Source: Pseudanabaena sp. UWO311
Lineage (GTDB): Bacteria > Cyanobacteriota > Cyanobacteriia > PCC-6307 > Cyanobiaceae
Length of the DNA stretch: 32,000 nt
Direction: 5' to 3'
Assembly (NCBI GenBank): GCA_943370385.1
Contig: CALRQT020000008.1
Location: 118,214 to 150,213 of the forward strand
The position numbers were made by a program, and so were the translations under genes. Shown in pieces: positions 2,238 through 32,000 of the stretch. The notes below the pieces were generated by a model. The model searched no databases, was not told the DNA's origin, and saw only the letters and a list, made by a program, of their open reading frames with translations. How positions within the stretch are numbered: position 1 is the first letter of the stretch; the number at the start of each line of letters is the position of its first letter.

Positions 2238-4181
2238 CTAACCGTCCAGCAGGGCCTCGATGAATTCGAAGCTGTTGAACGGGCGCAGATCCCGGATGCC
2301 TTCGCCAGCGCCGATGAACCGGATCGGCAGGCCCGCTTCCGACGCCACCGCCAGGGCCACGCCGCCGCGGGCACTGCCATCGAGCTTGGTGAGCACCACG
2401 CCGGTGAGGCCAGCCGCCTTGGCAAAGGCCATGGCCTGGCGCAGGCCGTTCTGGCCCTGGCTGGCATCGAGCACCAACAGGGATTCCACCGCCGCCTCGG
2501 GGGCCAGGCGATCGACGATGCGACGCACCTTGGCCAGTTCCTCCATCAGATTGTGCTTGGTTTGCAGGCGGCCGGCCGTGTCGACCAGAACGAGGTCGAG
2601 GCCCTTGGATTGGGCGGCGCCGATCGCATCGAACACCACCGCCGCGGGATCGGCATTGGCGGAGGGATTGGACACAACCGTGACGCCACTACGATCGCCC
2701 CAGACCCGCACCTGCTCGACGGCCGCGGCCCGGAAGGTGTCGGCGGCAGCGATCAGGCAGCTGTAGCCGCTGCGGGTGGCCAAATTGGCCAGCTTGCCCA
2801 GGGTGGTGGTTTTGCCCACACCATTGACCCCCACCAGCAGCCAAACGTTGAGGCGATCGCGCTGGGGGGCGAGCAGGGCAGTGCCGCTGGCGCGAATCGG
2901 CGCCTCCAACAACTCTTTGAGCTGGTCCTTGAGGAAGCGAATGCCTTCGCTGGGATCCACCACCTCCACATTGAGGCGCTCGCGCAGGGCCCCCAGGGCC
3001 TGGTCCGTGGCCTTCACGCCCACATCAGCCCGCAACAGCAGGGTTTCCAGCTCGTCGAGCACCTCCGGGGTGAGGGGATCGTCGCCCAGGTTGGTGAGCA
3101 GCTGGGTAACGAAATTGCGACGGGTCTTCTCCAGGCCCCGGCGCAACCGGCCGAGCCAATCAATTTCCTCGAGGGACACCTGATCAGCGCGGCGGCCCTG
3201 GGCCGCCAACACCTCGGCCGACCAGGTGAAATCAGCATCAAAAGCACCCAGCTGGGGTTCCGCGTCAGCAGCGGTGGCCGGGGTCTGGGGAGCCGGAACC
3301 GGAGCCACGACAGCAGCCGCGCCGGCGATGGTGGCACTCCAGGTGCCAGGGGCAGAAGGCCCTGGTGGAGCCCCTGGGGGCACCGGAGACGCCGGTTCCT
3401 CGATCGCACGGGCCAGCAACTCCCGCTGGCGTTCGGCCCGCTGGGCCGCGGCCTGCTCCAGCAAGGACAACCCGGGCGCCGGACTGGCGGCAGGCTGGTC
3501 CGTAGGAACCCCTACAGCCGCGGCGGACTCAGGACGCTCGGGCTCCTGGGCCGGCAGCGAAGCCAAGGAACCCCCCTCCGGCTGGCTCGGGCTTGGCTCG
3601 GGGTTCGCTGGCTCGGACCCCTGGGGAACAGGGCCAGGCTGGGGTTCGGCAGCGCGTTGCGTTGATGGCTCCGGCTGGTCTGGCGCCAAGCTCTGGGGCT
3701 GGGGCGCCGGTTGATCCGCCTGCCAGGGCTGGCCGGGCGTGGGGGCCGCAGGCGCCCCAACCGCTGCAGGGGGTGCAGGGGCGGAAGCTGGCCCAGCGGC
3801 CGCTGGCGGCTCAGGTGATAGCGGCTCCTGGGGGGCTGGTTCGGGGGGACGGGCCTGGGCCTGCTGGCGAGTGGCTTCTTGCTGGGCCTTGAGGCGGGCA
3901 TAGGCCTGGCGGGCCCATTCGAGGGCTTCGCTATCGACGCCAGCCATGGGCGCCGGGCTGGCCGGAACCGCTGGCGAGGCTTGGGGCCCACCGGCGTCAG
4001 CCCCAGGGGGGGACTCCGGGGGTGAGGGGGCGACGGATTCGGAGAGCCCCGGGGATTCGCTGGGTTCAGGGGCCGGGGCGTCAGCCGCTTGGGGGGCCGG
4101 CGGCGGCCCAGGCTCCAGTTCGGGCTGGTCCCCTGACTGACCCTCGGGGACGGAAGTGCGCTGGAACCAGTCGAACACCAT
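2238..4181 (-). CDS. ftsY: Signal recognition particle receptor FtsY with a long Pro/Ala/Glu/Ser-rich N-terminal region
   Basis: 647-aa ORF starting MVFDWFQR. The C-terminal NG domain has the SRP-GTPase motifs GVNGVGKTTTLGKLA, DTAGRLQ and TKLDGSARGG. The stop of upstream nusB is 7 nt from this start, suggesting an operon. Confidence 0.95.
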   Translation of the reverse strand: MVFDWFQRTSVPEGQSGDQPELEPGPPPAPQAADAPAPEPSESPGLSESVAPSPPESPPGADAGGPQASPAVPASPAPMAGVDSEALEWARQAYARLKAQQEATRQQAQARPPEPAPQEPLSPEPPAAAGPASAPAPPAAVGAPAAPTPGQPWQADQPAPQPQSLAPDQPEPSTQRAAEPQPGPVPQGSEPANPEPSPSQPEGGSLASLPAQEPERPESAAAVGVPTDQPAASPAPGLSLLEQAAAQRAERQRELLARAIEEPASPVPPGAPPGPSAPGTWSATIAGAAAVVAPVPAPQTPATAADAEPQLGAFDADFTWSAEVLAAQGRRADQVSLEEIDWLGRLRRGLEKTRRNFVTQLLTNLGDDPLTPEVLDELETLLLRADVGVKATDQALGALRERLNVEVVDPSEGIRFLKDQLKELLEAPIRASGTALLAPQRDRLNVWLLVGVNGVGKTTTLGKLANLATRSGYSCLIAAADTFRAAAVEQVRVWGDRSGVTVVSNPSANADPAAVVFDAIGAAQSKGLDLVLVDTAGRLQTKHNLMEELAKVRRIVDRLAPEAAVESLLVLDASQGQNGLRQAMAFAKAAGLTGVVLTKLDGSARGGVALAVASEAGLPIRFIGAGEGIRDLRPFNSFEFIEALLDG

Positions 4182-16969: not shown

Positions 16970-17101
16970 GGGCCAGCGCAAGGGGACCCCCACGCTTCCA
17001 CAGGGCCGGCCTAAGCGCAACGGTCCGGCTTGTCGGCTTCCCGTCCCTTCTTCTGATTAATGGATTGATCTCTTAAACAAAGAAGCAATCCAGTAGCAGT
17101 A

Positions 17102-17117
17102 GGGGCTGGGGAAAACA
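17102..17117 (+). repeat. Direct repeat copy 1 (GGGGCTGGGGAAAACA)
   Basis: Exact 16-bp match to 17221-17236. It contains the TGGGGAAAA box-like motif. Confidence 0.9.
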
Positions 17118-17220
17118 GGGAAAACCTCAATAAGCCTGATAGCTACTACGGTTTTACCAATTCAGGACAGGGAAAAGCAATTCCCATCATCGTAAAAACA
17201 ACCGTTTTCCACTTTTTCCC

Positions 17221-17236
17221 GGGGCTGGGGAAAACA
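17221..17236 (+). repeat. Direct repeat copy 2 (GGGGCTGGGGAAAACA)
   Basis: Exact 16-bp match to 17102-17117, with 119 bp centre-to-centre spacing. Confidence 0.9.
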
Positions 17237-17343
17237 ATGACCCATGGGGGAGATTGTTCTTCCGTTTTTTTCCCAGGTTCGGCCCGGCCCAATCCCCAGC
17301 CTTTCCATCGGCCGGTTCCCCAGTTGGTTAGGCCAAAAGTCAC

Positions 17344-17371
17344 AAAAAAGGGCTCACCCTTCGGTGAGCCC
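17344..17371 (-). terminator. Rho-independent terminator (minus strand)
   Basis: The plus strand reads AAAAAA-GGGCTCACC-CTTC-GGTGAGCCC. On the minus strand this is a perfect 9-bp GC-rich stem with a GAAG loop followed by UUUUUU. It lies 183 nt downstream of the thrC stop and just before the DnaA-box cluster. Confidence 0.75.
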
Positions 17372-17553
17372 AATCAAGCCCCCATGGCGTTGAACCGTTT
17401 TCCAGCCGGATCGCCCCCATAGCGGGTCTGTTGGAGCCTGCGCTAGGGGTGTTGCCCCCCCTTTGGGAGGGGCGGTTTCAGACAGGCCTGGCTTAACGCC
17501 CGGGGCACCAGGCTGGGGCGAAGGGTTGGTTGTCGGTGTCGATGGGCCCGAAC

Positions 17554-21692: not shown

Positions 21693-23396
21693 TTGCCTGG
21701 GGCCGCTGTGCTGACGGGTCTGCGCCTTGAAAACATTGCCCTGATTGAGAGCTTGGAGCTCGGCTTCAGCGGTGGCTTCACGGTGCTCACCGGGGAAACC
21801 GGCGCTGGCAAGTCGATTTTGCTCGATGCCCTCGATGCTCTGCTGGGGGGCGCCCAGGGAGCGGCGGGCGCCAGGTTGTTGCGCCAGGGCCAGCAGCGGG
21901 GCCGCATCGAAGCCAGTTTCAGCGTGACGCCGCCCCTACAGAGCTGGCTAGAGCAGCAGCACTTTGAGCTGGAGGAGGACGACCTACTGCTCAGTCGCGA
22001 ATGGCGTTTGCAGGAGGAGCGGCTCACCAGCCGGCACCGGCTCAATGGCGTGGTCGTCAGTCGCGCCCAGGTGCAGGAGCTCCGTCCCCTCCTGCTCGAT
22101 CTCACCGTTCAGGGCCAGACCCAGCAATTGGGCCGGCCCGGCCAACAGCGCCGCTGGCTCGATCGCTTTGGCGGCCCCGAGCTGGCCCAGGCCCTCGAGC
22201 CCGTGGCGCTGGCCTATCGCCACTGGAAACAGGCGGCCGCCACCCTGGAGACGGCCCGGCGCGATTGGCAGCAGCTGCAACAGGAACGGCAACAACAGGA
22301 GCAACTGCTGCTGGATCTCGAAGCCGCCCAATTGGACGATCCCCAGGAGCGTCAGGAGCTGGAGCTGGCCCAGGACCGGCTCGTGCACGGGGTGCGCCTA
22401 CAGGAGGGGGTGATGACCCTGCTGGGTCGGCTGATTGAGGGGGCCGACCAGGCTCCCTCTGCCCTGGACCATCTCGCCGCCTGCGAACAGGAGTTGCAGC
22501 TGCTGGAGGCCATCGATCCCAGCCTGCTCGCCCTGCGCCAGGCCTGCACCGATGGCCTGGCCCAACTCCAGGACCTGGCCCGCGATCTCGATCGCTATGG
22601 CGCCAGCCTGGAGAGCGATCCCGAAACCCTGGCCTCCCTGCAGGAGCGCATCGCCCAGCTGAAGACCCTGGAGCGGCGCCATGGCCAAGGCCTGGGCGAA
22701 TTGATCGCCCGGCGTGATGAGCTGCGCCAGCTCCTGGCCCCCGGCGGCGGAGAGGCGGCGCTCAGTGAGCTCGAAGCCCAGGAGCAGCAGAGCCGTGGTC
22801 GGCGGGATCGCTGCAACGGCCAGCTCAGTGCCGCCCGCCGCCTAGCGGCCACGGCCCTGGAGGGCCAGCTGATGGAGGCCCTGCGGCCCATGGGCCTGGC
22901 CAATGTGCGCTTTGCCGTGGCCATCAGTGCGGCGGCGGCCAGCGAGGAGGGCGCCGATGGGGTGCAGTTCCTGTTTTCAGCCAATCCGGGCCAACCCCTG
23001 GCTCCCCTGGCCGAGGTGGCCTCCGGCGGGGAGATGAGCCGCTTTCTCTTGGCCCTGAAAACCTGCCTGGCGGCGGCCGATCCCCACGTCACCCTGCTGT
23101 TTGATGAGATCGACAGTGGCGTCAGCGGCCGGGTGAGCGGCGCCATGGCGGCCCTGCTGCAGAAGTTGGCCCAACAGCGCCAGGTGTTCTGCGTCACCCA
23201 CCAGCCCCTGGTGGCCGCCGCCGCCGAGCACCATTTTCTGGTGTCCAAATGGGTCGAAGCGGGCCAGACCCAAACGCGAGTGTCCCAACTGCGGGACACC
23301 CAGGCCCGCCAAAAGGAACTGGCGGAACTGGCCGGGGGCGATTCCGGCGGGGCCCGCAGCTATGCGGCCAGCCTGCTCGCCAGCCCCCCGGGCTGA
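21693..23396 (+). CDS. recN: DNA repair protein RecN
   Basis: 567-aa ORF with LRLENIALIESLELGFSGGFTVLTGETGAGKSILLDAL (Walker A), a long coiled-coil middle and the C-terminal SGGEMSRFLLAL..LLFDEIDSGVSG. The start is TTG 21693 or GTG 21708. Confidence 0.9.
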   Translation: MPGAAVLTGLRLENIALIESLELGFSGGFTVLTGETGAGKSILLDALDALLGGAQGAAGARLLRQGQQRGRIEASFSVTPPLQSWLEQQHFELEEDDLLLSREWRLQEERLTSRHRLNGVVVSRAQVQELRPLLLDLTVQGQTQQLGRPGQQRRWLDRFGGPELAQALEPVALAYRHWKQAAATLETARRDWQQLQQERQQQEQLLLDLEAAQLDDPQERQELELAQDRLVHGVRLQEGVMTLLGRLIEGADQAPSALDHLAACEQELQLLEAIDPSLLALRQACTDGLAQLQDLARDLDRYGASLESDPETLASLQERIAQLKTLERRHGQGLGELIARRDELRQLLAPGGGEAALSELEAQEQQSRGRRDRCNGQLSAARRLAATALEGQLMEALRPMGLANVRFAVAISAAAASEEGADGVQFLFSANPGQPLAPLAEVASGGEMSRFLLALKTCLAAADPHVTLLFDEIDSGVSGRVSGAMAALLQKLAQQRQVFCVTHQPLVAAAAEHHFLVSKWVEAGQTQTRVSQLRDTQARQKELAELAGGDSGGARSYAASLLASPPG

Positions 23397-23481
23397 ACCT
23401 CAGCGGCGCCGGGACTCCGCCCGGGCGGACCCAACCGGGCCCCGGGTCCCACCTAGAATCGCCCCTTATCGGATCCCGTGG

Positions 23482-26400
23482 ATGGCTCGCGCGAGCGCCA
23501 GTTCTGATCGGCCTGCCACCAGCTCCGCCGCGCCAGCCCGCACCATCAACGAGAAGGCGGCCCAGTTGAGTGCCAGCCGCCTGCTCAATGGCGGCAGCCT
23601 GGAGGACGTGATCCGGGTGCGGGGCGCCCGCCAGCACAACCTCAAAAACGTTGACCTGACGATTCCGCGCAATCGCCTGGTGGTGTTTACCGGGGTCAGT
23701 GGCAGCGGCAAAAGCTCCCTCGCCTTTGACACGATCTTTGCCGAGGGCCAGCGCCGCTACGTCGAGAGCCTCTCGGCCTATGCGCGCCAGTTTCTGGGCC
23801 AGGTGGATAAGCCCGATGTGGATGCGATTGAGGGGCTTTCACCCGCCATCTCGATCGATCAGAAATCCACCAGCCATAACCCCCGCTCCACCGTTGGCAC
23901 GGTGACGGAAATACAGGATTATTTGCGGCTTCTCTATGGCCGCGCCGGCGAACCCCATTGCCCCCAATGTGACCGCTCGATCCGCCCCCAAACCATCGAT
24001 GAGATGGTGGACCAGATCAGTGCTTTGCCTGAAGGTACCCGCTATCAACTGCTGGCGCCGGTGGTGCGCGGCAAGAAGGGCACCCATGTGAAATTACTGG
24101 GCGGTCTGGTGGCGGAGGGTTTTGCCCGGGTGCGCATCAATGGCGAAGTGCGCGAACTCGCCGACAACATCGAACTCGATAAGAACCACGCCCACCACAT
24201 TGAGGTGGTGGTGGACCGGTTGGTGGCCCGTGAAGGCATCCAGGAACGGCTCACCGATTCCCTGCGCACGGCCCTAAAACGCGGGGATGGCCTGGCTTTG
24301 GTGGAGGTGGTGCCCAAGGCCGACCAGCCCCTGCCCGAGGGGCTGGAGCGGGAACGGCTCTATTCGGAAAACTTCGCCTGTCCGGTTCATGGTGCCGTGA
24401 TGGAGGAACTGTCGCCCAGGCTGTTCTCCTTCAACAGCCCCTATGGAGCCTGCCCCGATTGCCATGGCATCGGCCACCTGCGTAAGTTCACGCTGGAGCG
24501 GGTGGTGCCCGATCCAACGCTGCCCGTGTATGCGGCGATTGCCCCTTGGAGTGATAAGGATAATTCCTATTACTTCTCAATGATTTATAGTGTGGGCGAA
24601 GCCTTTGGCTTTGAAATTAAGCTTCCCTGGAACCAACTCACAACCGAACAGCGGGATATTTTGCTGCATGGCAGCACCGAAGAGATCGCCATCCAGGCCG
24701 ATAGTCGCTACCGCAAGGGTCAGGCCTACATGCGCCCGTTTGAGGGCATTTTGCCGATCCTGGAGCGGCAACTGCGCGATGCCAGTGGCGAAGCCGTTCG
24801 CCAAAAATTAGAGAAGTTCCTGGAGATGGTGCCCTGCGCCACCTGTAAGGGTTTGCGGTTGCGCCCCGAGGCCCTGGCCGTGAAGGTGGGCCCCTATGGG
24901 ATCCATGAACTCACGGCCGTGAGTGTGGGCGAAAGTCTGCTGCGGATCGAGGCCTTGATGGGGGTGGGGGCCAGCGAAGGGGCCGATCCCCTGATCACGC
25001 CCCGCCAGATCCAGATTGGTGATCTGGTGTTGCGCGAGGTGCGCATGCGCCTCAAGTTTCTGCTCGATGTGGGCCTCGATTACCTGAGCCTGGATCGCCC
25101 CGCCATGACCCTCTCCGGTGGCGAGGCCCAGCGGATTCGCCTGGCTACCCAAATTGGCGCGGGTCTCACGGGTGTGTTGTATGTGCTCGATGAACCGAGC
25201 ATCGGCCTGCACCAACGCGATAACGATCGCCTGCTGGCCACCCTGTTCAAGCTGCGGGATCTCGGCAACACCCTGATCGTGGTCGAGCACGACGAAGACA
25301 CAATCCGGGCCGCTGATTATGTGGTGGACATCGGTCCTGGCGCCGGCGTCCATGGCGGCCACATCGTGGCCCAAGGTTCCTTAGAAAACCTGCTGACGGC
25401 AGAGGAGTCGTTAACGGGCGCCTATCTGAGCGGCCGTTTGTCGATTCCTACCCCTGCCCAGCGCCGCAGCAGTGGCAGTCGGCGCATCAGTTTGGTGAAT
25501 TGCCAGCGCAACAATCTCAACGGCTTCGATGTGGACATTCCCCTCGGACGCTTGGTGTGCGTGACCGGCGTGAGTGGCAGTGGCAAGAGCACCCTGGTGA
25601 ATGAGCTGCTCCATCCAGCCCTGGAGCACAAGTTGGGCATGAAGGTGCCCTTCCCGGCGGGCCTGGATGAACTCAAGGGCATCAAGGCGATCGACAAGGT
25701 GATCGTGATTGACCAATCCCCGATCGGTCGTACACCCCGCTCCAACCCGGCCACCTACACGGGCGCCTTCGATCCGATTCGCCAGGTGTTTGCGGCCACG
25801 GTGGAGGCCAAGGCCCGCGGCTACCAGGTGGGCCAGTTCAGTTTCAACGTGAAGGGCGGTAGGTGCGAGGCCTGCAGCGGCCAGGGCGTGAACGTGATTG
25901 AGATGAATTTCCTGCCCGATGTCTATGTGCAATGCGACGTGTGTAAGGGTGCTCGCTACAACCGTGAAACCCTGCAGGTGACCTATCGCGGCCACAACAT
26001 TGCTGAAGTGCTGGAGATGACGGTGGAGCAGGCCGCCGAGGTGTTCTCCGCCATTCCCCAGGCGGCGGATCGCCTGCGCACCCTGGTGGATGTGGGCCTG
26101 GGCTACGTCAAACTCGGCCAACCCGCCCCCACCCTCTCCGGCGGTGAAGCCCAACGGGTGAAGCTGGCCACGGAACTCTCGAAGCGGGCCACCGGCAAGA
26201 CCCTCTATCTCATCGATGAACCCACCACGGGCTTAAGTTTCTACGACGTCCATAAATTGATGGATGTGATGCAGCGGTTGGTGGATAAGGGCAACTCGAT
26301 CTTGGTGATCGAGCACAACCTCGATGTGATCCGCTGCGGCGACTGGGTGATCGACCTAGGACCCGAAGGCGGCGACAAGGGCGGCGAGATCGTCGTGGCG

Positions 26401-26499
26401 GGCACGCCTGAGGAGGTGGCGGAGCATTCCACTAGCCATACGGGCAGGTATCTCAAGCAGGTGCTGGCGCAGCATCCGCCGATGGTGGTTGATGCCTGA
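23482..26499 (+). CDS. uvrA: Excinuclease ABC subunit A
   Basis: The track ORF is 23362..26499. The ATG at 23482 is followed by IRVRGARQHNLKNVDLTIPRNRLVVFTGVSGSGKSSLAFDTIFAEGQRRYVESLSAYARQF. Both ABC modules and the zinc-finger cysteines are present (CPQCD, CPDCHG, CEACSGQG..CDVCKG). Confidence 0.97.
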   Translation: MARASASSDRPATSSAAPARTINEKAAQLSASRLLNGGSLEDVIRVRGARQHNLKNVDLTIPRNRLVVFTGVSGSGKSSLAFDTIFAEGQRRYVESLSAYARQFLGQVDKPDVDAIEGLSPAISIDQKSTSHNPRSTVGTVTEIQDYLRLLYGRAGEPHCPQCDRSIRPQTIDEMVDQISALPEGTRYQLLAPVVRGKKGTHVKLLGGLVAEGFARVRINGEVRELADNIELDKNHAHHIEVVVDRLVAREGIQERLTDSLRTALKRGDGLALVEVVPKADQPLPEGLERERLYSENFACPVHGAVMEELSPRLFSFNSPYGACPDCHGIGHLRKFTLERVVPDPTLPVYAAIAPWSDKDNSYYFSMIYSVGEAFGFEIKLPWNQLTTEQRDILLHGSTEEIAIQADSRYRKGQAYMRPFEGILPILERQLRDASGEAVRQKLEKFLEMVPCATCKGLRLRPEALAVKVGPYGIHELTAVSVGESLLRIEALMGVGASEGADPLITPRQIQIGDLVLREVRMRLKFLLDVGLDYLSLDRPAMTLSGGEAQRIRLATQIGAGLTGVLYVLDEPSIGLHQRDNDRLLATLFKLRDLGNTLIVVEHDEDTIRAADYVVDIGPGAGVHGGHIVAQGSLENLLTAEESLTGAYLSGRLSIPTPAQRRSSGSRRISLVNCQRNNLNGFDVDIPLGRLVCVTGVSGSGKSTLVNELLHPALEHKLGMKVPFPAGLDELKGIKAIDKVIVIDQSPIGRTPRSNPATYTGAFDPIRQVFAATVEAKARGYQVGQFSFNVKGGRCEACSGQGVNVIEMNFLPDVYVQCDVCKGARYNRETLQVTYRGHNIAEVLEMTVEQAAEVFSAIPQAADRLRTLVDVGLGYVKLGQPAPTLSGGEAQRVKLATELSKRATGKTLYLIDEPTTGLSFYDVHKLMDVMQRLVDKGNSILVIEHNLDVIRCGDWVIDLGPEGGDKGGEIVVAGTPEEVAEHSTSHTGRYLKQVLAQHPPMVVDA

Positions 26500-26687
26500 G
26501 GTTCTTCTTAGATAGTCCCAATGTATCTTATTGGCTAAAGACACGACAACTGAAGGGATTTTAATATAGATGCGTTGTGCCAGGATTTCTGGCCTTTATT
26601 CTCTATCTTGTTATTTTTGGCAGTTAATTTGTTGTTGGTGCCAAGCAGCAAGGGGTTGCAGTACGTTTTGCTTTCTTTTGGCTGTTA

Positions 26688-27599
26688 TTAAGGTCCAACC
26701 GTTTTTTCATTTAGGCTTTTATATAAAGCCTCGTCAACCGACATTCCTATTGCCTTAACTAGTCGCAGGCGAACTAATAGCTCTTCCTCTTTGCTGAGGA
26801 GACCGTTAGTAAAACGCTTGTTCAAAGAGCTAAAGTTTCGAACGTGGGAGAGGGTAAAAATGTCAATAGCTGCGAAGCGCCAGTCCCCTAAATGGGCGGC
26901 ACACAGTGGTAGGGCGAAACGATCTAATCCATAGCCACTTCGAATGCCAGTGCTAAATGGCATGGCCAGTTCGAGAAGGTCAGTGCGTATGAACGGAGCC
27001 ATAATTTCAACAATTGGCACGCGATGTAAGGTATGGCCAGGTCGCTGACGCAGCCATCCATATTCTTGGCTAAGACTGCTTGTGTGACTCACCGCTGGTT
27101 GTAAAGCCGAAAGGTTATAAATCCGTGCAAGTGCTAACAAGGTAATGACGTCGCTACTACGCAACATCACATCATCATCAATAAAGCCCGTGTAGTGGCC
27201 GGCCGGTGGTCTTGCCAGCCGTTGATAGGCCACTTCCATCAGATGACCCTTGCATTCAGTAGCTTCACTAAGGAGTTCCCATCCATGCGGATTACTGCCT
27301 GCTTCAAAGCCTTCGCCCGTCCAGTCGAACAGCACGACGCGACAGGGAAATTGCTGATCGACCAGCACACAGTGCCTGCCTCTTTGTGAAGCAATTACAA
27401 TCAGATCGTTTGGCTGGGCACTTGGATTAATAGTAGGCTTGCCATTAGTGATTGGATCCTGGCTTTCAAGTTCTTCGATTTTCTTTGCCATTTCGGGCAA
27501 AAATTGATCGCTATGGCTGTCAATAACCCAACGCTTCCATTGCAGTCGCTCTGCGTTGGGTGCCGCATCAAGTAGCTTGGGAAAGCTAATGGCAGCCAT
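26688..27599 (-). CDS. DUF707-like protein (putative glycosyltransferase-fold, function unknown)
   Basis: 303-aa ORF in low-GC DNA. It shares the ordered motif pattern I remember from plant/bacterial DUF707: RVVLFDWTGEG, TGFIDDDVML (DxD-like), LSALQPAV, IVEIMAPFIRTDLL and SGYGLDRF. An HMM search is needed to confirm this. Confidence 0.6.
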   Translation of the reverse strand: MAAISFPKLLDAAPNAERLQWKRWVIDSHSDQFLPEMAKKIEELESQDPITNGKPTINPSAQPNDLIVIASQRGRHCVLVDQQFPCRVVLFDWTGEGFEAGSNPHGWELLSEATECKGHLMEVAYQRLARPPAGHYTGFIDDDVMLRSSDVITLLALARIYNLSALQPAVSHTSSLSQEYGWLRQRPGHTLHRVPIVEIMAPFIRTDLLELAMPFSTGIRSGYGLDRFALPLCAAHLGDWRFAAIDIFTLSHVRNFSSLNKRFTNGLLSKEEELLVRLRLVKAIGMSVDEALYKSLNEKTVGP

Positions 27600-28043
27600 G
27601 GATATACAGTTGACTAGGTTGGCCTGCTGTTAGTATGACTGATCAACGGCACTTTTGGCAGGAAATTTTTATTACGGATCTTATCTGTTGGATAGCTTAA
27701 AGTAGGATGGTTTTTGGGAGGCGATGGAGGCTTTAATTAAGGGCTTAAGATGTTTGGATCACAACAGTGTCCCCCCGCCGATTTATCCCGCTGCCATAGC
27801 TCATGCACTTGCCCCTCTAGGGCTTGAAAACCCTTGGGGATTGGGTGGCGGGGAAAGGCGCAGGCCACCGGCAAGATCTGGCCTGAATCGTCGCTTTGAT
27901 CGATGTCAATAATCGCTTGATCTCCAAATTGACCTTATTAGGGGGAGAAGATGATTATTTTTGCATCGGCATCGATTGATAATTGGCGCGACTCTCAATA
28001 AACGAAGCTGCCGATATTGGCGGCTGTGTACACATTATAAAAA

Positions 28044-28226
28044 ATGGAGCTTGAAGCTGCTCTCTGTGAATTCCTAAGCAGAGTGGCTCCAGACTTGGTG
28101 ATGCAACCATTTTGTTTTGAATTGGCAGGCCAGTACCTTGTATTCATCGAGAATGGCGGCCATTGGTGCTATGCAGTAATTTTTTCTAATGATAACCTAG
28201 GCAAGACCAATTTATATTGGAATTAA
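28044..28226 (+). CDS. Hypothetical small protein (60 aa)
   Basis: This ATG-initiated ORF lies in about 38% GC DNA (23/60 GC in 28141-28200), where a 60-codon open frame is less expected by chance. It has no recognisable family and could be a fragment. Confidence 0.25.
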   Translation: MELEAALCEFLSRVAPDLVMQPFCFELAGQYLVFIENGGHWCYAVIFSNDNLGKTNLYWN

Positions 28227-28292
28227 TTTAGCTTGGTCAATCATCCTTCCTGCTTGTTATACATCATCAAGCCAATCTTTTGGCCGCGCCTA

Positions 28293-28637
28293 TCAGCGCT
28301 GCGGTTCTTGCGCTTCCTTGCCACCAGGGCGATAACGATCCATCACAGTATCCAAGCTCTGGTTGGTGATCTTTGGATTACTCTGTTGTAAACAGGCCAG
28401 AAGAACGGCCTTATTGGCCTGCACGCGCTCCCTGGTGGGACGATTCCCTTGGGAGCTTGGCTGAACTTTGGAAAAACAGGTCTTAAATACGCTAGCTGGA
28501 ATGCCAAGATCACGGCTGATTTGATCCACGGGTCGCCTTGGATCATCCGATAACATCGCTGGCGCAGCTGCTCCAGCCTTGGGGGTGCTGGCGATTCCCA
28601 TGAGGATGAATAGCTGAATCAAGATGGCTCGTTGCAC
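28293..28637 (-). CDS. Small secreted protein, unknown family (about 114 aa, 2 Cys in the mature part)
   Basis: The track ORF 28293..28841 would overlap the divergent gene. An in-frame GTG at 28637 gives the signal peptide (M)QRAILIQLFILMGIASTPKAGAAAPA followed by MLSDDPRRPVDQISRDLGIP..VLLACLQQSNPKITNQSLDTVMDRYRPGG. Confidence 0.5.
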   Translation of the reverse strand: MQRAILIQLFILMGIASTPKAGAAAPAMLSDDPRRPVDQISRDLGIPASVFKTCFSKVQPSSQGNRPTRERVQANKAVLLACLQQSNPKITNQSLDTVMDRYRPGGKEAQEPQR

Positions 28638-28761
28638 CGGTTTGGTATTTTGGAGTTTGCATTTATTTTTGCACGCCTTGACCCGCGATGATGGCTGTCC
28701 TGCTTCCAGATCATGGCTTAAGCTGGTCAGTAAGAATTGGCCAAATCTTCGTAGGTGACCC

Positions 28762-29139
28762 TTGACCATTTTTCGTTCTCTTTTCGTAGTCTGCTTAGCG
28801 TTGGTATCCACGTCTGCTGCCCTAGCTGAAACCTGGACCACAACAGGGCGTTGTTCGTTTAATCGGGCATCTCAGAACTGCACGGTGCGCGCTAGTGCCG
28901 ATCTGTCCTCTCCCGCTTGGAGCGCCCGCTATGTGTTGCTATGGGCCGATGGTATCCGTCAGACGATAACAGTGGGCAGTGATGTGCGGGCTACGGTCAT
29001 CGTTGGCGGTAAGAGTATCGCCGCCGAGCAATTGCCCCCCGATCAAGCGGGCCATTGTGTGATTCGCTCCGTCACTGGCAATGTGACCAAATTTGATTCC
29101 GGTCGCCTTGGGGTGGTTAAGGATCAGCCTGGCTGTTGA
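28762..29139 (+). CDS. Small secreted 4-Cys protein, unknown family (125 aa)
   Basis: The TTG start is preceded by AGGTGA. A clear Sec signal, TIFRSLFVVCLALVSTSAALA, is followed by ETW. The mature part has Cys in the contexts GRC, QNC, GHC and PGC. It is on the same strand as, and 109 nt upstream of, the alpha-CA gene. Confidence 0.55.
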   Translation: MTIFRSLFVVCLALVSTSAALAETWTTTGRCSFNRASQNCTVRASADLSSPAWSARYVLLWADGIRQTITVGSDVRATVIVGGKSIAAEQLPPDQAGHCVIRSVTGNVTKFDSGRLGVVKDQPGC

Positions 29140-29248
29140 GTTGTTGGGGTTGCTCTGGTGCAGGTGTAGCTATTAAATCGAAGATGAATGGGCGATCCAG
29201 GCGAATTTCTGCTATGGTTTGATAGTTAATGTACTAACATTGATTTCC

Positions 29249-29992
29249 ATGGTTTCCAAGGTTGTTCCAGCAACTGCTTTGCTGCTGAGCTTGGCCCTGC
29301 CGGCCGCGGGTCTCGCCAAGCCCAAATACGGTTATTCCGGTGATATTGCCCCTGAAAAGTGGGGTAAACTCAGCCCTGATTATGCAGCTTGTTCCATTGG
29401 TACAAGTCAGGCTCCCCTCAATATCATTACGGCGAAAACCGTTAAGGATTCTAAGAGCCTGCCCCTAAAGCCCAATTACATCCCTGGCCCCGCCGAAGTA
29501 GTCAATACTGGCACTGGTATTCAAGTCAATCTTAAGGGGGACCTAAAGATCGGCCCAGCCGATTATAAGTTGTTGCAGTTCCACTTCCATGCCCATGGAG
29601 AGGAGGCGATTAACGGTGTTCATTATCCCCTCAATGCCCACCTGGTCCATGCCAACAGTGCCGGCAGCCTTCGGGTGATTGGTGTCAATCTCAAGGTTGG
29701 AGCTCCGAATGCCTATTTGGATTCGTTCTGGAGCAAGCTGCCTGCCAAGAAGGATGGAACGGTGAAAGTTGAACTGCCTTCCCTGGCTGGTTTGTTGCCC
29801 AAGTCCCTGGCTTACTTCACCTACACCGGCTCCCTGACCACCCCTCCTTGCACCGAGGGCGTTCAGTTCTTCATTCTTAAGGAGCCTGTGACGATTTCGG
29901 CCAAGCAACTAGACACCTTCTTAAAACTGTACCCAAACAACGCCCGTCCCGTTCAGCCTTTGAATGGACGTGTGATCAAATCCAGCAACTGA
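29249..29992 (+). CDS. ecaA: Alpha-class carbonic anhydrase with a Sec signal peptide (EcaA-like)
   Basis: The ATG at 29249 gives MVSKVVPATALLLSLALPAAGLA. The mature part begins YGYSGDIAPEKWGKLSPDYAACSIGTSQAPLNI and contains QFHFHAHGEEAINGVHYPLNAHLVH (three zinc His), YTGSLTTPPCTEGV and NARPVQPLNGR. The Cys pair is typical of periplasmic bacterial alpha-CAs. Confidence 0.9.
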   Translation: MVSKVVPATALLLSLALPAAGLAKPKYGYSGDIAPEKWGKLSPDYAACSIGTSQAPLNIITAKTVKDSKSLPLKPNYIPGPAEVVNTGTGIQVNLKGDLKIGPADYKLLQFHFHAHGEEAINGVHYPLNAHLVHANSAGSLRVIGVNLKVGAPNAYLDSFWSKLPAKKDGTVKVELPSLAGLLPKSLAYFTYTGSLTTPPCTEGVQFFILKEPVTISAKQLDTFLKLYPNNARPVQPLNGRVIKSSN

Positions 29993-30021
29993 TTGCTGCG
30001 GCTATTATCAACGAAGTTTTA

Positions 30022-30053
30022 GGGCGCTTCCTATCAGGAGCGCCCCTTTTTTA
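30022..30053 (+). terminator. Rho-independent terminator of the alpha-CA gene
   Basis: GGGCGCTTCC-TATCA-GGAGCGCCC (one bulged T) is followed by CTTTTTTAT, about 30 nt after the stop at 29992. Confidence 0.65.
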
Positions 30054-30182
30054 TGGCCGAAATGCAGCCACGGTGACCTTGTTTAGGGGTTGGTTATGGC
30101 TCCCTATCTATGGGTTTGGCACTGGCTTTTGCCTCAATGATCGTTGTTCCTGTTATTGCTTTTCTTGTCCTCCTAGGGCTCC

Positions 30183-30602
30183 CTAGTCCTCAGGGGAACG
30201 GGGTTGGCCCTGCCGTTTCCCCTTAATGGCGCTGCGCTGTTTTTTGGCCGCTAGCCGCCGCTCCACCGATCCCCGCGTCGGTTTTGTGCGTCGCCGCGGC
30301 GGCGCAGGAGGGGCGATTGCTTCCTTCAGCAGGTCCACCAAACGCCGTTGGGCGGCGACCCGGTTCTGCCATTGGGAGCGGTGTTCCGAGGCCACGATCA
30401 CTAAGGCTCCATCCACCAACCGTGGAGCCAACCGCTCCAGGGCTCGGGCCTTGAGCGCCGGTGGTAGGGCGGCAGAAGATGCCAGGTCAAAGAGCAACTC
30501 CACCCGGGTATCGGTGCTGTTGACGTTCTGACCGCCGGGTCCGGAGGAGCGAGAAAAACGCCACCCCAACACGGCCACGGGAATCGAAACTCCTGGGGTC
30601 AA
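30183..30602 (-). CDS. arfB: Alternative ribosome-rescue factor ArfB (peptidyl-tRNA hydrolase, YaeJ family)
   Basis: 139-aa ORF (TTG start) with the GGQ motif SSGPGGQNVNSTDTRVEL, then EHRSQWQNR and a basic C-terminal tail (RRRTKPTRGSVERRLAAKKQRSAIKGKR). Confidence 0.85.
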   Translation of the reverse strand: MTPGVSIPVAVLGWRFSRSSGPGGQNVNSTDTRVELLFDLASSAALPPALKARALERLAPRLVDGALVIVASEHRSQWQNRVAAQRRLVDLLKEAIAPPAPPRRRTKPTRGSVERRLAAKKQRSAIKGKRQGQPRSPED

Positions 30603-30640
30603 GGTGAGGTGGTCGTTGCGCTGATCGATGGCTAGTCACT

Positions 30641-31387
30641 TCAGATTACGGTTACTTTGCCAGTGCCGATATCGAAGTAGGCCGATTTGATCGCTAGTTT
30701 GCCGCTGGCCTGGGCCTGCTTGAGCACGTCGCTGCGTTGGGTGAGCGTAGCGGCCGAATAGAGGGCATTGCCCTGAATGGCCTTGGTGAGATCGTCGCCA
30801 GGCTTGAGCGAGGCTCGAATCGGCTTCACCAACCCTTCCAGCAGCGGGGTGAGGGGTGCGGAAGCCATCGCGGCCTTGACGGCACCACAGGCGCTATGGC
30901 CCATGACCAGGATCAGCGGCACTTCCAGCACGGCGACGGCGTATTCCATCGAAGCAATCGCATCGTCAAAGGCCGTATTGCCGGCGGCCCGGACCTGGAA
31001 CAGTTCACCGGAACCGGCAGCAAAGATCCATTCCGGGGCCACCCGGGCGTCGGCGCAGCTCAGCAGGGCGGCCCAGGGCTTCTGGCCTTCAGCTAAGGCG
31101 GCTGGGTTGATTTGGCAACCAGCGGCAAAGATCGACTTGGTTAACTCCATGCGCTGGCTTGCCGTGGGTGCACTCACCGCTTGCTGCCAGGCCTTGCTGA
31201 ATGTGCCATTACGTCGCAACAGTTCAGCGAGGGGATCCGTAGGGGGTGAACAGACGGTGAGATCCTTGGCCAGTTTCGAGTCCGTAGCGCCCGCAGCCTG
31301 GGCAGCTCCGCCGCTCAACTTCGGTAGGACTAGCCCACTAGCAACCAAGCTAGCTGCTTGGAGTAAGTGACGTCTAGAAAGTGCCAT
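30641..31387 (-). CDS. Beta-class carbonic anhydrase with a twin-arginine (Tat) signal peptide
   Basis: The track ORF is 30641..31402 (TTG). The ATG at 31387 gives MALSRRHLLQAASLVASGLVLPKLSGGAAQAAG. The beta-CA zinc-site motifs are SCADARVAPE (C-x-D-x-R) and VMGHSACGAV (H-x-x-C), with FQVRAAGN also present. Confidence 0.85.
   Translation of the reverse strand: MALSRRHLLQAASLVASGLVLPKLSGGAAQAAGATDSKLAKDLTVCSPPTDPLAELLRRNGTFSKAWQQAVSAPTASQRMELTKSIFAAGCQINPAALAEGQKPWAALLSCADARVAPEWIFAAGSGELFQVRAAGNTAFDDAIASMEYAVAVLEVPLILVMGHSACGAVKAAMASAPLTPLLEGLVKPIRASLKPGDDLTKAIQGNALYSAATLTQRSDVLKQAQASGKLAIKSAYFDIGTGKVTVI

Positions 31388-31570: not shown

Positions 31571-32000
<430 letters not shown>

Follow-up and report, generated by a model that had tools for sequence, protein, structure and literature searches.

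Neighboring genes for two carbonic anhydrases with predicted export signals, an EcaA-like α enzyme and a Tat-signal β enzyme, in a freshwater picocyanobacterium

After 25 years, the role of the external carbonic anhydrases (CAs) of cyanobacteria is still not settled, and nearly all work on them concerns β-cyanobacteria. The known enzymes include EcaA, of the α class, and EcaB, of the β class, which has a twin-arginine (Tat) signal and a lipoprotein site. Cyanothece ATCC 51142 has both, and their roles are unsettled (PMC10096703, PMC11360081, PMC9570166). EcaB of Synechocystis is mostly associated with the thylakoid and has been proposed as a partner of CupA/B (PMC10096703, PMC11360081). Cabello-Yeves et al. 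(2022) found α-CAs sporadically in the freshwater picocyanobacterial subclusters 5.2 and 5.3 and described one β-CA clade that is restricted to α-cyanobacteria; that paper does not discuss export signals or gene neighborhood (PMC9477826). We analyzed a 32,000-nucleotide stretch of a high-GC freshwater picocyanobacterial genome (the window; contig CALRQT020000008.1). Here an α-CA gene and a β-CA gene lie 650 bases apart, both within 2.2 kb, where a preliminary description of the sequence had placed them. That description suggested that the pair is an acquired periplasmic module for inorganic carbon. The α- and β-CAs of subclusters 5.2 and 5.3 are not new, having already been reported in PMC9477826. 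We think it likely, with a probability of roughly 0.78, that the pair consists of independent, functional genes, each for an exported CA, that are neighbors and were not acquired together as a unit.

A Pfam check of the two classes, proposed in the preliminary description, agreed with both assignments (E values in Table 1). The α-CA scored 132.8 bits with Carb_anhydrase, against a cutoff of 27. The match spans residues 45 to 256 of the longer, 257-aa TTG open reading frame (ORF; start at 29219) that was used for the scan. Among 34 aligned homologues, His112, His114, and His131, which bind zinc, are invariant, as are Glu118 and Thr197/198. The enzyme has the three zinc histidines and the Glu106 and Thr199 gatekeepers (hCA II numbering) of the α class. 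Cys48 and Cys201, the disulfide cysteines of the SLTTPPC type, are also invariant in these homologues. The patterns SLTTPPC[TS]E and NARP[VL]QPL are universal to α-CAs; a contig scan with them gave at least 600 matches, and those listed were proteobacterial and were reused as outgroups for the tree described below.

Sec and Tat signals were called by simple rules and by conservation in homologues. The leader of the α-CA begins with MVSK, with one lysine in the n-region, and continues with a 19-residue uncharged core and a predicted cleavage site between GLA and KPK, with small residues at positions -3 and -1. A comparable hydrophobic leader is present in every full-length homologue, down to 45% identity, and the mature start KP(K/Q)YGY is kept across the picocyanobacterial clade. 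The α-CA combines a predicted cleavable signal with a disulfide cysteine pair, the hallmarks of the periplasmic EcaA-type α-CAs, as had been proposed from the sequence. Its ratio of nonsynonymous to synonymous substitution (dN/dS) against relatives is 0.04 to 0.09. An exact-protein look-up found no identical copy of this α-CA on record.

The α-CA lacks the proton-shuttle histidine of hCA II (His64), a residue that fast isoforms typically have but that an enzyme need not have to belong to the α class. A threonine is present at this position, in NTGTG, versus NNGHT in the outgroups and in the solved structure 4C3T. The corresponding segment (29500 to 29530 of the window, residues 86 to 89 or so) reads NTGT(G/T) throughout the picocyanobacterial clade and NNGHT in other bacterial α-CAs.

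The β-CA scored 107.2 bits with Pro_CA, against a cutoff of 25.7. Its catalytic residues, Cys111, Asp113, and Arg115 of the Cys-x-Asp-x-Arg motif and His164 and Cys167 of the His-x-x-Cys motif, are invariant among 34 aligned homologues. We considered and rejected a COS or CS2 hydrolase function, because all 30 of 30 PDB matches are named carbonic anhydrase. The leader begins with MALSRRHLLQ, followed by 16 uncharged residues, Lys23 in the c-region, and a predicted cleavage site after AQA. It has each element of a Tat substrate, namely an S/T-R-R-x-F-L-K-like motif, a moderately hydrophobic h-region, a basic residue in the c-region, and an AxA site. Arg5-Arg6 is invariant in the aligned homologues, and 101 of 106 full-length homologues pass a TatFind-like rule that asks for two arginines and, after them, 13 or more uncharged residues. 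The preliminary description had already pointed out the twin-arginine motif (SRRHLL). The dN/dS of the β-CA against relatives is 0.04 to 0.13, and the low ratios of the two CA genes indicate strong purifying selection on both.

Besides the Tat signal, the β-CA family has a 60-residue N-terminal extension with invariant Cys46 and Cys91. These extra cysteines (31115 to 31252 of the window, residues 46 to 91) lie in LxxC[ST]P and GCQI, respectively. A disulfide between them is possible and would suit an oxidizing compartment. A profile search over 1.84 billion representative proteins recovered the full-length architecture from only a few 50%-identity clusters, whose named members are all picocyanobacteria: Synechococcus WH 5701 (WH5701_03850), CBW1107, and BSF8S, and Cyanobium. 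The remaining matches cover the catalytic domain only.

With their conserved export signals, both CAs are expected to leave the cytoplasm; the preliminary description had likewise predicted action outside the cytoplasm. One or both signals might instead be artifacts of start-codon choice, leaving enzymes that are cytoplasmic or unexpressed. Some relatives of the β-CA are indeed called from an internal methionine just past the AxA site, as 214-aa versions; there are in-frame TTG codons within the α-CA leader; and the α-CA has decayed in one relative. However, the window β-CA has a threonine at the internal position, and its only downstream in-frame methionine is residue 80. Initiation past the signal is unlikely, because a protein begun at Met80 would lack a conserved region with the invariant Cys46. 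In addition, the twin arginines are invariant, protein-level conservation of both leaders extends over homologues that are 57 to 95% identical, and dN/dS is 0.04 to 0.13 over the full length. A cytoplasmic CA also collapses the carbon-concentrating mechanism of cyanobacteria, as Price and Badger reportedly found in 1989. We regard a start-codon artifact as very unlikely. Relatives of the β-CA that read AGAMDSK at the internal position are often called from this methionine, without a signal (P0437 and the other 214-aa members of the P0132 cluster). Such a start would yield a cytoplasmic β-CA isoform.

The Sec and Tat systems of cyanobacteria operate in both the plasma membrane and the thylakoid membrane. 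Sequence cannot separate the periplasm from the thylakoid lumen in cyanobacteria, and the word "periplasmic" in the preliminary description is thus assumed, above all where the β-CA is concerned. It is possible, if doubtful, that the β-CA and perhaps also the α-CA work in the thylakoid lumen or membrane, in the manner of EcaB or of CAH3 of Chlamydomonas, and aid NDH-1-type CO2 uptake or photosystem II rather than the acquisition of external inorganic carbon. EcaB also has a Tat signal, and the thylakoid association and proposed CupA/B partnership cited above lend this possibility some weight (PMC10096703, PMC11360081). The available part of Table S5 of PMC9477826 is consistent with it as well, with chpX in 40 of 40 and chpY in 38 of 40 Cyanobium genomes among those listed. 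The invariant Cys46 and Cys91 fit an oxidizing compartment, whichever it may be. However, the window β-CA lacks the lipobox that directly follows the h-region in the Tat β-CA of Aphanizomenon (RR...GTLTAC). It is also only 35 to 40% identical, over the catalytic domain, to the Tat/lipobox β-CAs of β-cyanobacteria, which served as proxies for slr0051, and no sequence feature discriminates between the two destinations. If the β-CA is lumenal, an α-carboxysome cyanobacterium would have a lumenal CA for NDH-1-type CO2 uptake or recapture. Its role would be analogous to that of Synechocystis EcaB or Chlamydomonas CAH3 and would have evolved independently. A division of labor, with the Sec-exported α-CA in the periplasm, the Tat-exported β-CA in the thylakoid lumen, and their adjacency kept by selection for both, is quite unlikely in our estimate.

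The preliminary description made its claim depend on co-location of the two genes in at least some related genomes. We obtained the loci of relatives by exact-protein look-ups. L001 and L002, with uvrA 96.6% identical to that of the window, have uvrA, a different island, an α-CA (86% identical), arfB, and speE, and no β-CA. L003 to L007 (speE 91% identical) have speE, a β-CA (91% identical), arfB, and orf303, an island ORF described below, and no α-CA. L008 (uvrA 96% identical) has the order of the window, α-CA/arfB/β-CA/speE, and its α-CA has eight in-frame stops. Only the last 102 α-CA codons are intact there (L008, positions 2665 to 3450, minus strand), perhaps from gene decay or from noisy metagenome assembly. 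Synechococcus BSF8S has speB-speE and β-CA-arfB, with a β-CA that is 60% identical and has a native GC content at third codon positions (GC3) of 0.89, and no α-CA within 8 kb. L012 to L014, with an α-CA that is 65% identical, have recN-uvrA-α-CA followed by unrelated genes, and no β-CA; their protein cluster includes a metagenome-assembled genome labelled Synechococcus lacustris.

An unbiased metagenome sample anchored on speE gave 80 loci, of which 39 were informative, with at least 3 kb of upstream sequence. Both CAs are present in 4 of the 39, in exactly the order of the window, and speE is 96 to 98% identical there, which places these loci in the same population. The β-CA alone occurs in 3 of the 39, and neither CA in 32, where arfB lies 100 to 200 bp from speE. 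Among the metagenome loci with enough sequence, the β-CA is upstream of speE in 11 of 65. It keeps its place beside speE and arfB at 55 to 63% identity without an α-CA, in BSF8S and in metagenome loci. In four loci of other picocyanobacterial lineages (L102, L129, L155, and L168), a β-CA of the same family (55 to 60% identical) lies beyond speE-speB, some 3.8 kb downstream from where speE starts. The β-CA is thus repeatedly linked to the polyamine locus, at differing positions. Co-location holds for the nearest relatives, that is, for 4 of 4 loci with speE 96 to 98% identical and for L008, and elsewhere gives way to α-only, β-only, and neither. The CA pair is fixed in one narrow lineage; across picocyanobacteria each gene comes and goes separately. 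The available part of Table S5 of PMC9477826 records an α-CA in 2 of 40 Cyanobium genomes among those listed, both without a β-CA of clades A to D.

The two genes do not form an operon. Convergent and on opposite strands, they are separated by arfB and a strong terminator. The β-CA is followed on the same strand, 38 nt downstream, by arfB, with which it probably shares a transcript, from a promoter region shared divergently with speE. The arfB gene went unnamed in the preliminary description. It is unusually divergent among close relatives, with 73 to 93% amino acid identity versus 96 to 98% for uvrA and 94 to 98% for speE, and its dN/dS of 0.11 to 0.26 is above that of its neighbors. It seems that arfB recombines together with the flexible region.

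These data bear on the proposal that both genes are a horizontally acquired functional module for periplasmic inorganic carbon, transferred and selected together. In its favor, the genes are adjacent in the window, in the four closest metagenome loci, and in L008, and both are missing at most picocyanobacterial speE loci (32 of 39 with neither). The synonymous divergence (dS) of arfB and of both CAs is higher than that of the flanking speE, which is consistent with a recombining cassette, and the α-CA lies on a low-GC block. However, the opposite strands, the intervening arfB and terminator, and the states with α-CA only, β-CA only, or neither are not those of an operon or a co-inherited module. 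The composition of the genes is unlike, with a GC3 of 0.585 for the α-CA versus 0.68 for the β-CA. The β-CA holds its place by speE and arfB without the α-CA at 55 to 63% identity, the α-CA is tied to uvrA without the β-CA at 65% identity, and close relatives have one CA gene only or an α-CA pseudogene. Searches of the locus for mobility genes, a tRNA, and flanking repeats were negative. We consider joint acquisition unlikely. Of the acquired periplasmic module, the data support the α-CA on a compositionally deviant block, the export signals of both enzymes, and co-location in the nearest relatives; they do not support a single unit, joint inheritance, or recent acquisition of the β-CA. On the last point, BSF8S, whose β-CA is 60% identical and native in composition, has kept speE and β-CA-arfB and lacks an α-CA.

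All lineages examined have a low-GC α-CA. In a rough neighbor-joining (NJ) tree, the picocyanobacterial α-CAs form one clade, with support from 100 of 100 bootstraps. This clade lies among proteobacterial sequences, with an unresolved sister group, and not with the enzymes of Pseudanabaena, Leptolyngbyaceae, and Nostoc, to which the window α-CA is 39 to 44% identical. A transfer of α-CA from β-cyanobacterial Synechococcus, as proposed in PMC9477826, is not supported by this rough tree, which includes non-cyanobacterial sequences. The pattern fits one old entry of the α-CA into the picocyanobacterial flexible gene pool and later exchange within it, and a recent import would not fit.

We therefore return to the reading of two independent genes and suggest how each product may work. 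The α-CA would carry a Sec signal, cross the membrane unfolded, and gain its zinc and the Cys48-Cys201 disulfide in an oxidizing compartment, most likely the periplasm. Its clade, found only in picocyanobacteria, would circulate in the flexible gene pool and be lodged here at the edge of an island, with its own terminator. The β-CA, of an older family also found only in picocyanobacteria, would fold and bind zinc in the cytoplasm, and the Tat system would then carry it to the periplasm or into the thylakoid lumen. Each CA would speed the interconversion of CO2 and HCO3- outside the cytoplasm. The exported enzymes may supply bicarbonate transporters or recover CO2 that has leaked out, and in neither case would they short-circuit the bicarbonate pool of the cytoplasm. 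Their adjacency would come from two accessory genes that have settled to the two sides of arfB, where the interval from uvrA to speE is prone to recombination.

Several points weigh against this reading. With threonine at the position of His64, the turnover of the α-CA may be modest, or its proton path may be different. The GC3 of the β-CA, 0.68, is somewhat under that of most core genes, and the allele may have come by recombination. The pair is always together in the population of the window (4 of 4 loci and L008), and selection for the combination is possible. Finally, two CA genes would fall within 2.2 kb by chance with a probability of about 0.15%, by a rough calculation that assumes random placement of both in a genome of some 3 Mb.

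The features of the locus are collected in Table 1.

Table 1. Coordinates of the features of the carbonic anhydrase locus in the window
Feature	Position	Strand	Remarks
uvrA	23362..26499	+	Core gene, left border of the island; Pfam UvrA_inter and UvrA_DNA-bind; 96.6% identity to uvrA of L001
Low-GC mosaic flexible island	26500..30180	.	Between uvrA stop and arfB stop; holds orf303, orf182/orf125, and the α-CA
α-class CA precursor, 247 aa, EcaA-like	29249..29992	+	Pfam PF00194, E 2e-38
Predicted Sec-type signal peptide of the α-CA	29249..29317	+	Residues 1-23, cleavage GLA/KPK; rule-based and conservation
Intrinsic terminator	30022..30055	+	30 nt past the α-CA stop codon; 9-bp stem (7 G-C pairs), 6-nt loop, T-run
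arfB (alternative ribosome-rescue peptidyl-tRNA hydrolase)	30183..30602	-	NCBIfam NF006718 (equivalog), E 7e-45, over the curated cutoff
β-class CA precursor, 248 aa, with N-terminal extension	30641..31387	-	Pfam PF00484, E 1e-30
Predicted Tat signal peptide of the β-CA	31295..31387	-	Residues 1-31, SRRHLLQ motif, cleavage AQA/A; rule-based and conservation
speE (spermidine synthase), 5' part	31574..32000	+	Exits the window; divergent from the β-CA; 94% identity to speE of L001 (Spermine_synth Pfam match)

The window has a GC content of about 65 to 70%. Its genes are ordered SpoIIE-type phosphatase (rsbU)-ftsY-nusB-DUF502-queG-TPR-gyrA-purF-purL-conserved hypothetical-dnaN, then thrC, DUF1400, ABC1 kinase, recN, and uvrA. 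We take this to be the origin-region order of Prochlorococcus and of cluster-5 Synechococcus and Cyanobium genomes, and it bears out the earlier assignment of the genome to the picocyanobacteria. A 533-nt noncoding gap between dnaN and thrC (17021 to 17553) is a probable oriC. The window has four near-matches to the cyanobacterial DnaA box TTTTCCACA, a total not above chance, and three of them are clustered at 17107 to 17234.

From the uvrA stop at 26499 to about 30180, the GC content in 200-nt windows is 0.40 to 0.57, and that of the flanks is about 0.65. The GC3 of the island ORFs other than the α-CA is 0.45 to 0.55. That of arfB is 0.70, and most core genes have 0.76 to 0.86, with purF at 0.68. 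The earlier placement of one CA on a deviant block is thus borne out by the α-CA. Island segments resemble different relatives, which indicates a mosaic, and island content varies between relatives whose uvrA is 96 to 98% identical. The island therefore has the deviant composition and the variable content in close relatives of a genomic island, and its mobility signatures (integrase, tRNA target, and direct repeats) were not found. A search of the island for a tRNA found none, and a search for flanking repeats found none, the repeat families being short two-copy matches only. No ORF scanned in the island region matched an integrase family in the Pfam and NCBIfam scans, and the region has no Rfam match for an RNA element. 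An island mediated by an integrase or a tRNA was considered and rejected because there is no tRNA and there are no flanking repeats.

Three island ORFs (26688 to 27599, minus strand; 28293 to 28841, minus strand; and 28762 to 29139, plus strand) have no significant Pfam or NCBIfam match. Of the named ORFs, orf303 is 86 to 88% conserved in relatives. The product of orf125 has a clear signal-peptide-like N terminus and several cysteines and is 80 to 92% conserved. Since orf182 shares 80 nt with orf125, it may not be a real gene. The equivalent islands of relatives encode glycosyltransferase, UDP-galactopyranose mutase, and PPC-domain genes.

The locus represents no new kind of system, and with these CA classes already published for freshwater picocyanobacteria its interest is modest. 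Purifying selection nevertheless maintains an EcaA-like CA and a Tat-signal β-CA in a common freshwater α-cyanobacterial population. The natural variants among its near relatives, with a single CA gene or a pseudogene, are suited to comparative physiology. The Tat β-CA family, which was found only in picocyanobacteria and includes WH5701_03850, is now identified, and its compartment can be tested in cultured strains.

Among solved structures, the best matches to the α-CA are two periplasmic α-CAs, 4C3T of Thermovibrio ammonificans (E 8e-53) and 1KOP of Neisseria gonorrhoeae. They share with it the zinc site, the SLTTPPC motif with its disulfide cysteine, and the signal peptide. However, both have the proton-shuttle histidine in NNGHT, whereas the picocyanobacterial clade has NTGT. 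The closest solved β-CA is Rv3588c of Mycobacterium tuberculosis (2A5V and 1YM3; E 2e-24), which has the same Cys-Asp-Arg/His-Cys site. The match is limited to residues 95 to 245 of the window β-CA, and Rv3588c has no counterpart of the Tat signal or of the cysteine-bearing extension.

The closest described relatives in function are EcaA and EcaB. EcaA of S. elongatus PCC 7942, Anabaena PCC 7120, and Cyanothece ATCC 51142 is of the α class and has an N-terminal export signal, as does the window α-CA. The cysteine pair is common to S. elongatus EcaA and the window α-CA, and patchy distribution and apparent dispensability are shared as well (PMC11360081, PMC9570166). However, a Tat signal has been described for Anabaena EcaA, and the window α-CA has a Sec-type signal; the threonine in place of His64 also sets the window enzyme apart. 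The window α-CA is 39 to 44% identical to the α-CAs sampled from β-cyanobacteria (Pseudanabaena, Leptolyngbyaceae, and Nostoc) and lies apart from them in the rough NJ tree, in the picocyanobacterial clade. EcaB (slr0051) of Synechocystis PCC 6803 is of the β class and has a twin-arginine signal, as does the window β-CA. It differs in its lipobox. In the window β-CA, the AxA site is followed by 14 partly charged residues and then by Cys46 (LTVC), and we rejected LTVC(46) as a true lipobox because it is too distant from the h-region and charged residues lie between. The window β-CA instead continues from the AxA site into the soluble 60-residue extension with two invariant cysteines, unlike EcaB. 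Like EcaB, it may have both the periplasm and the thylakoid as possible destinations (PMC10096703, PMC11360081).

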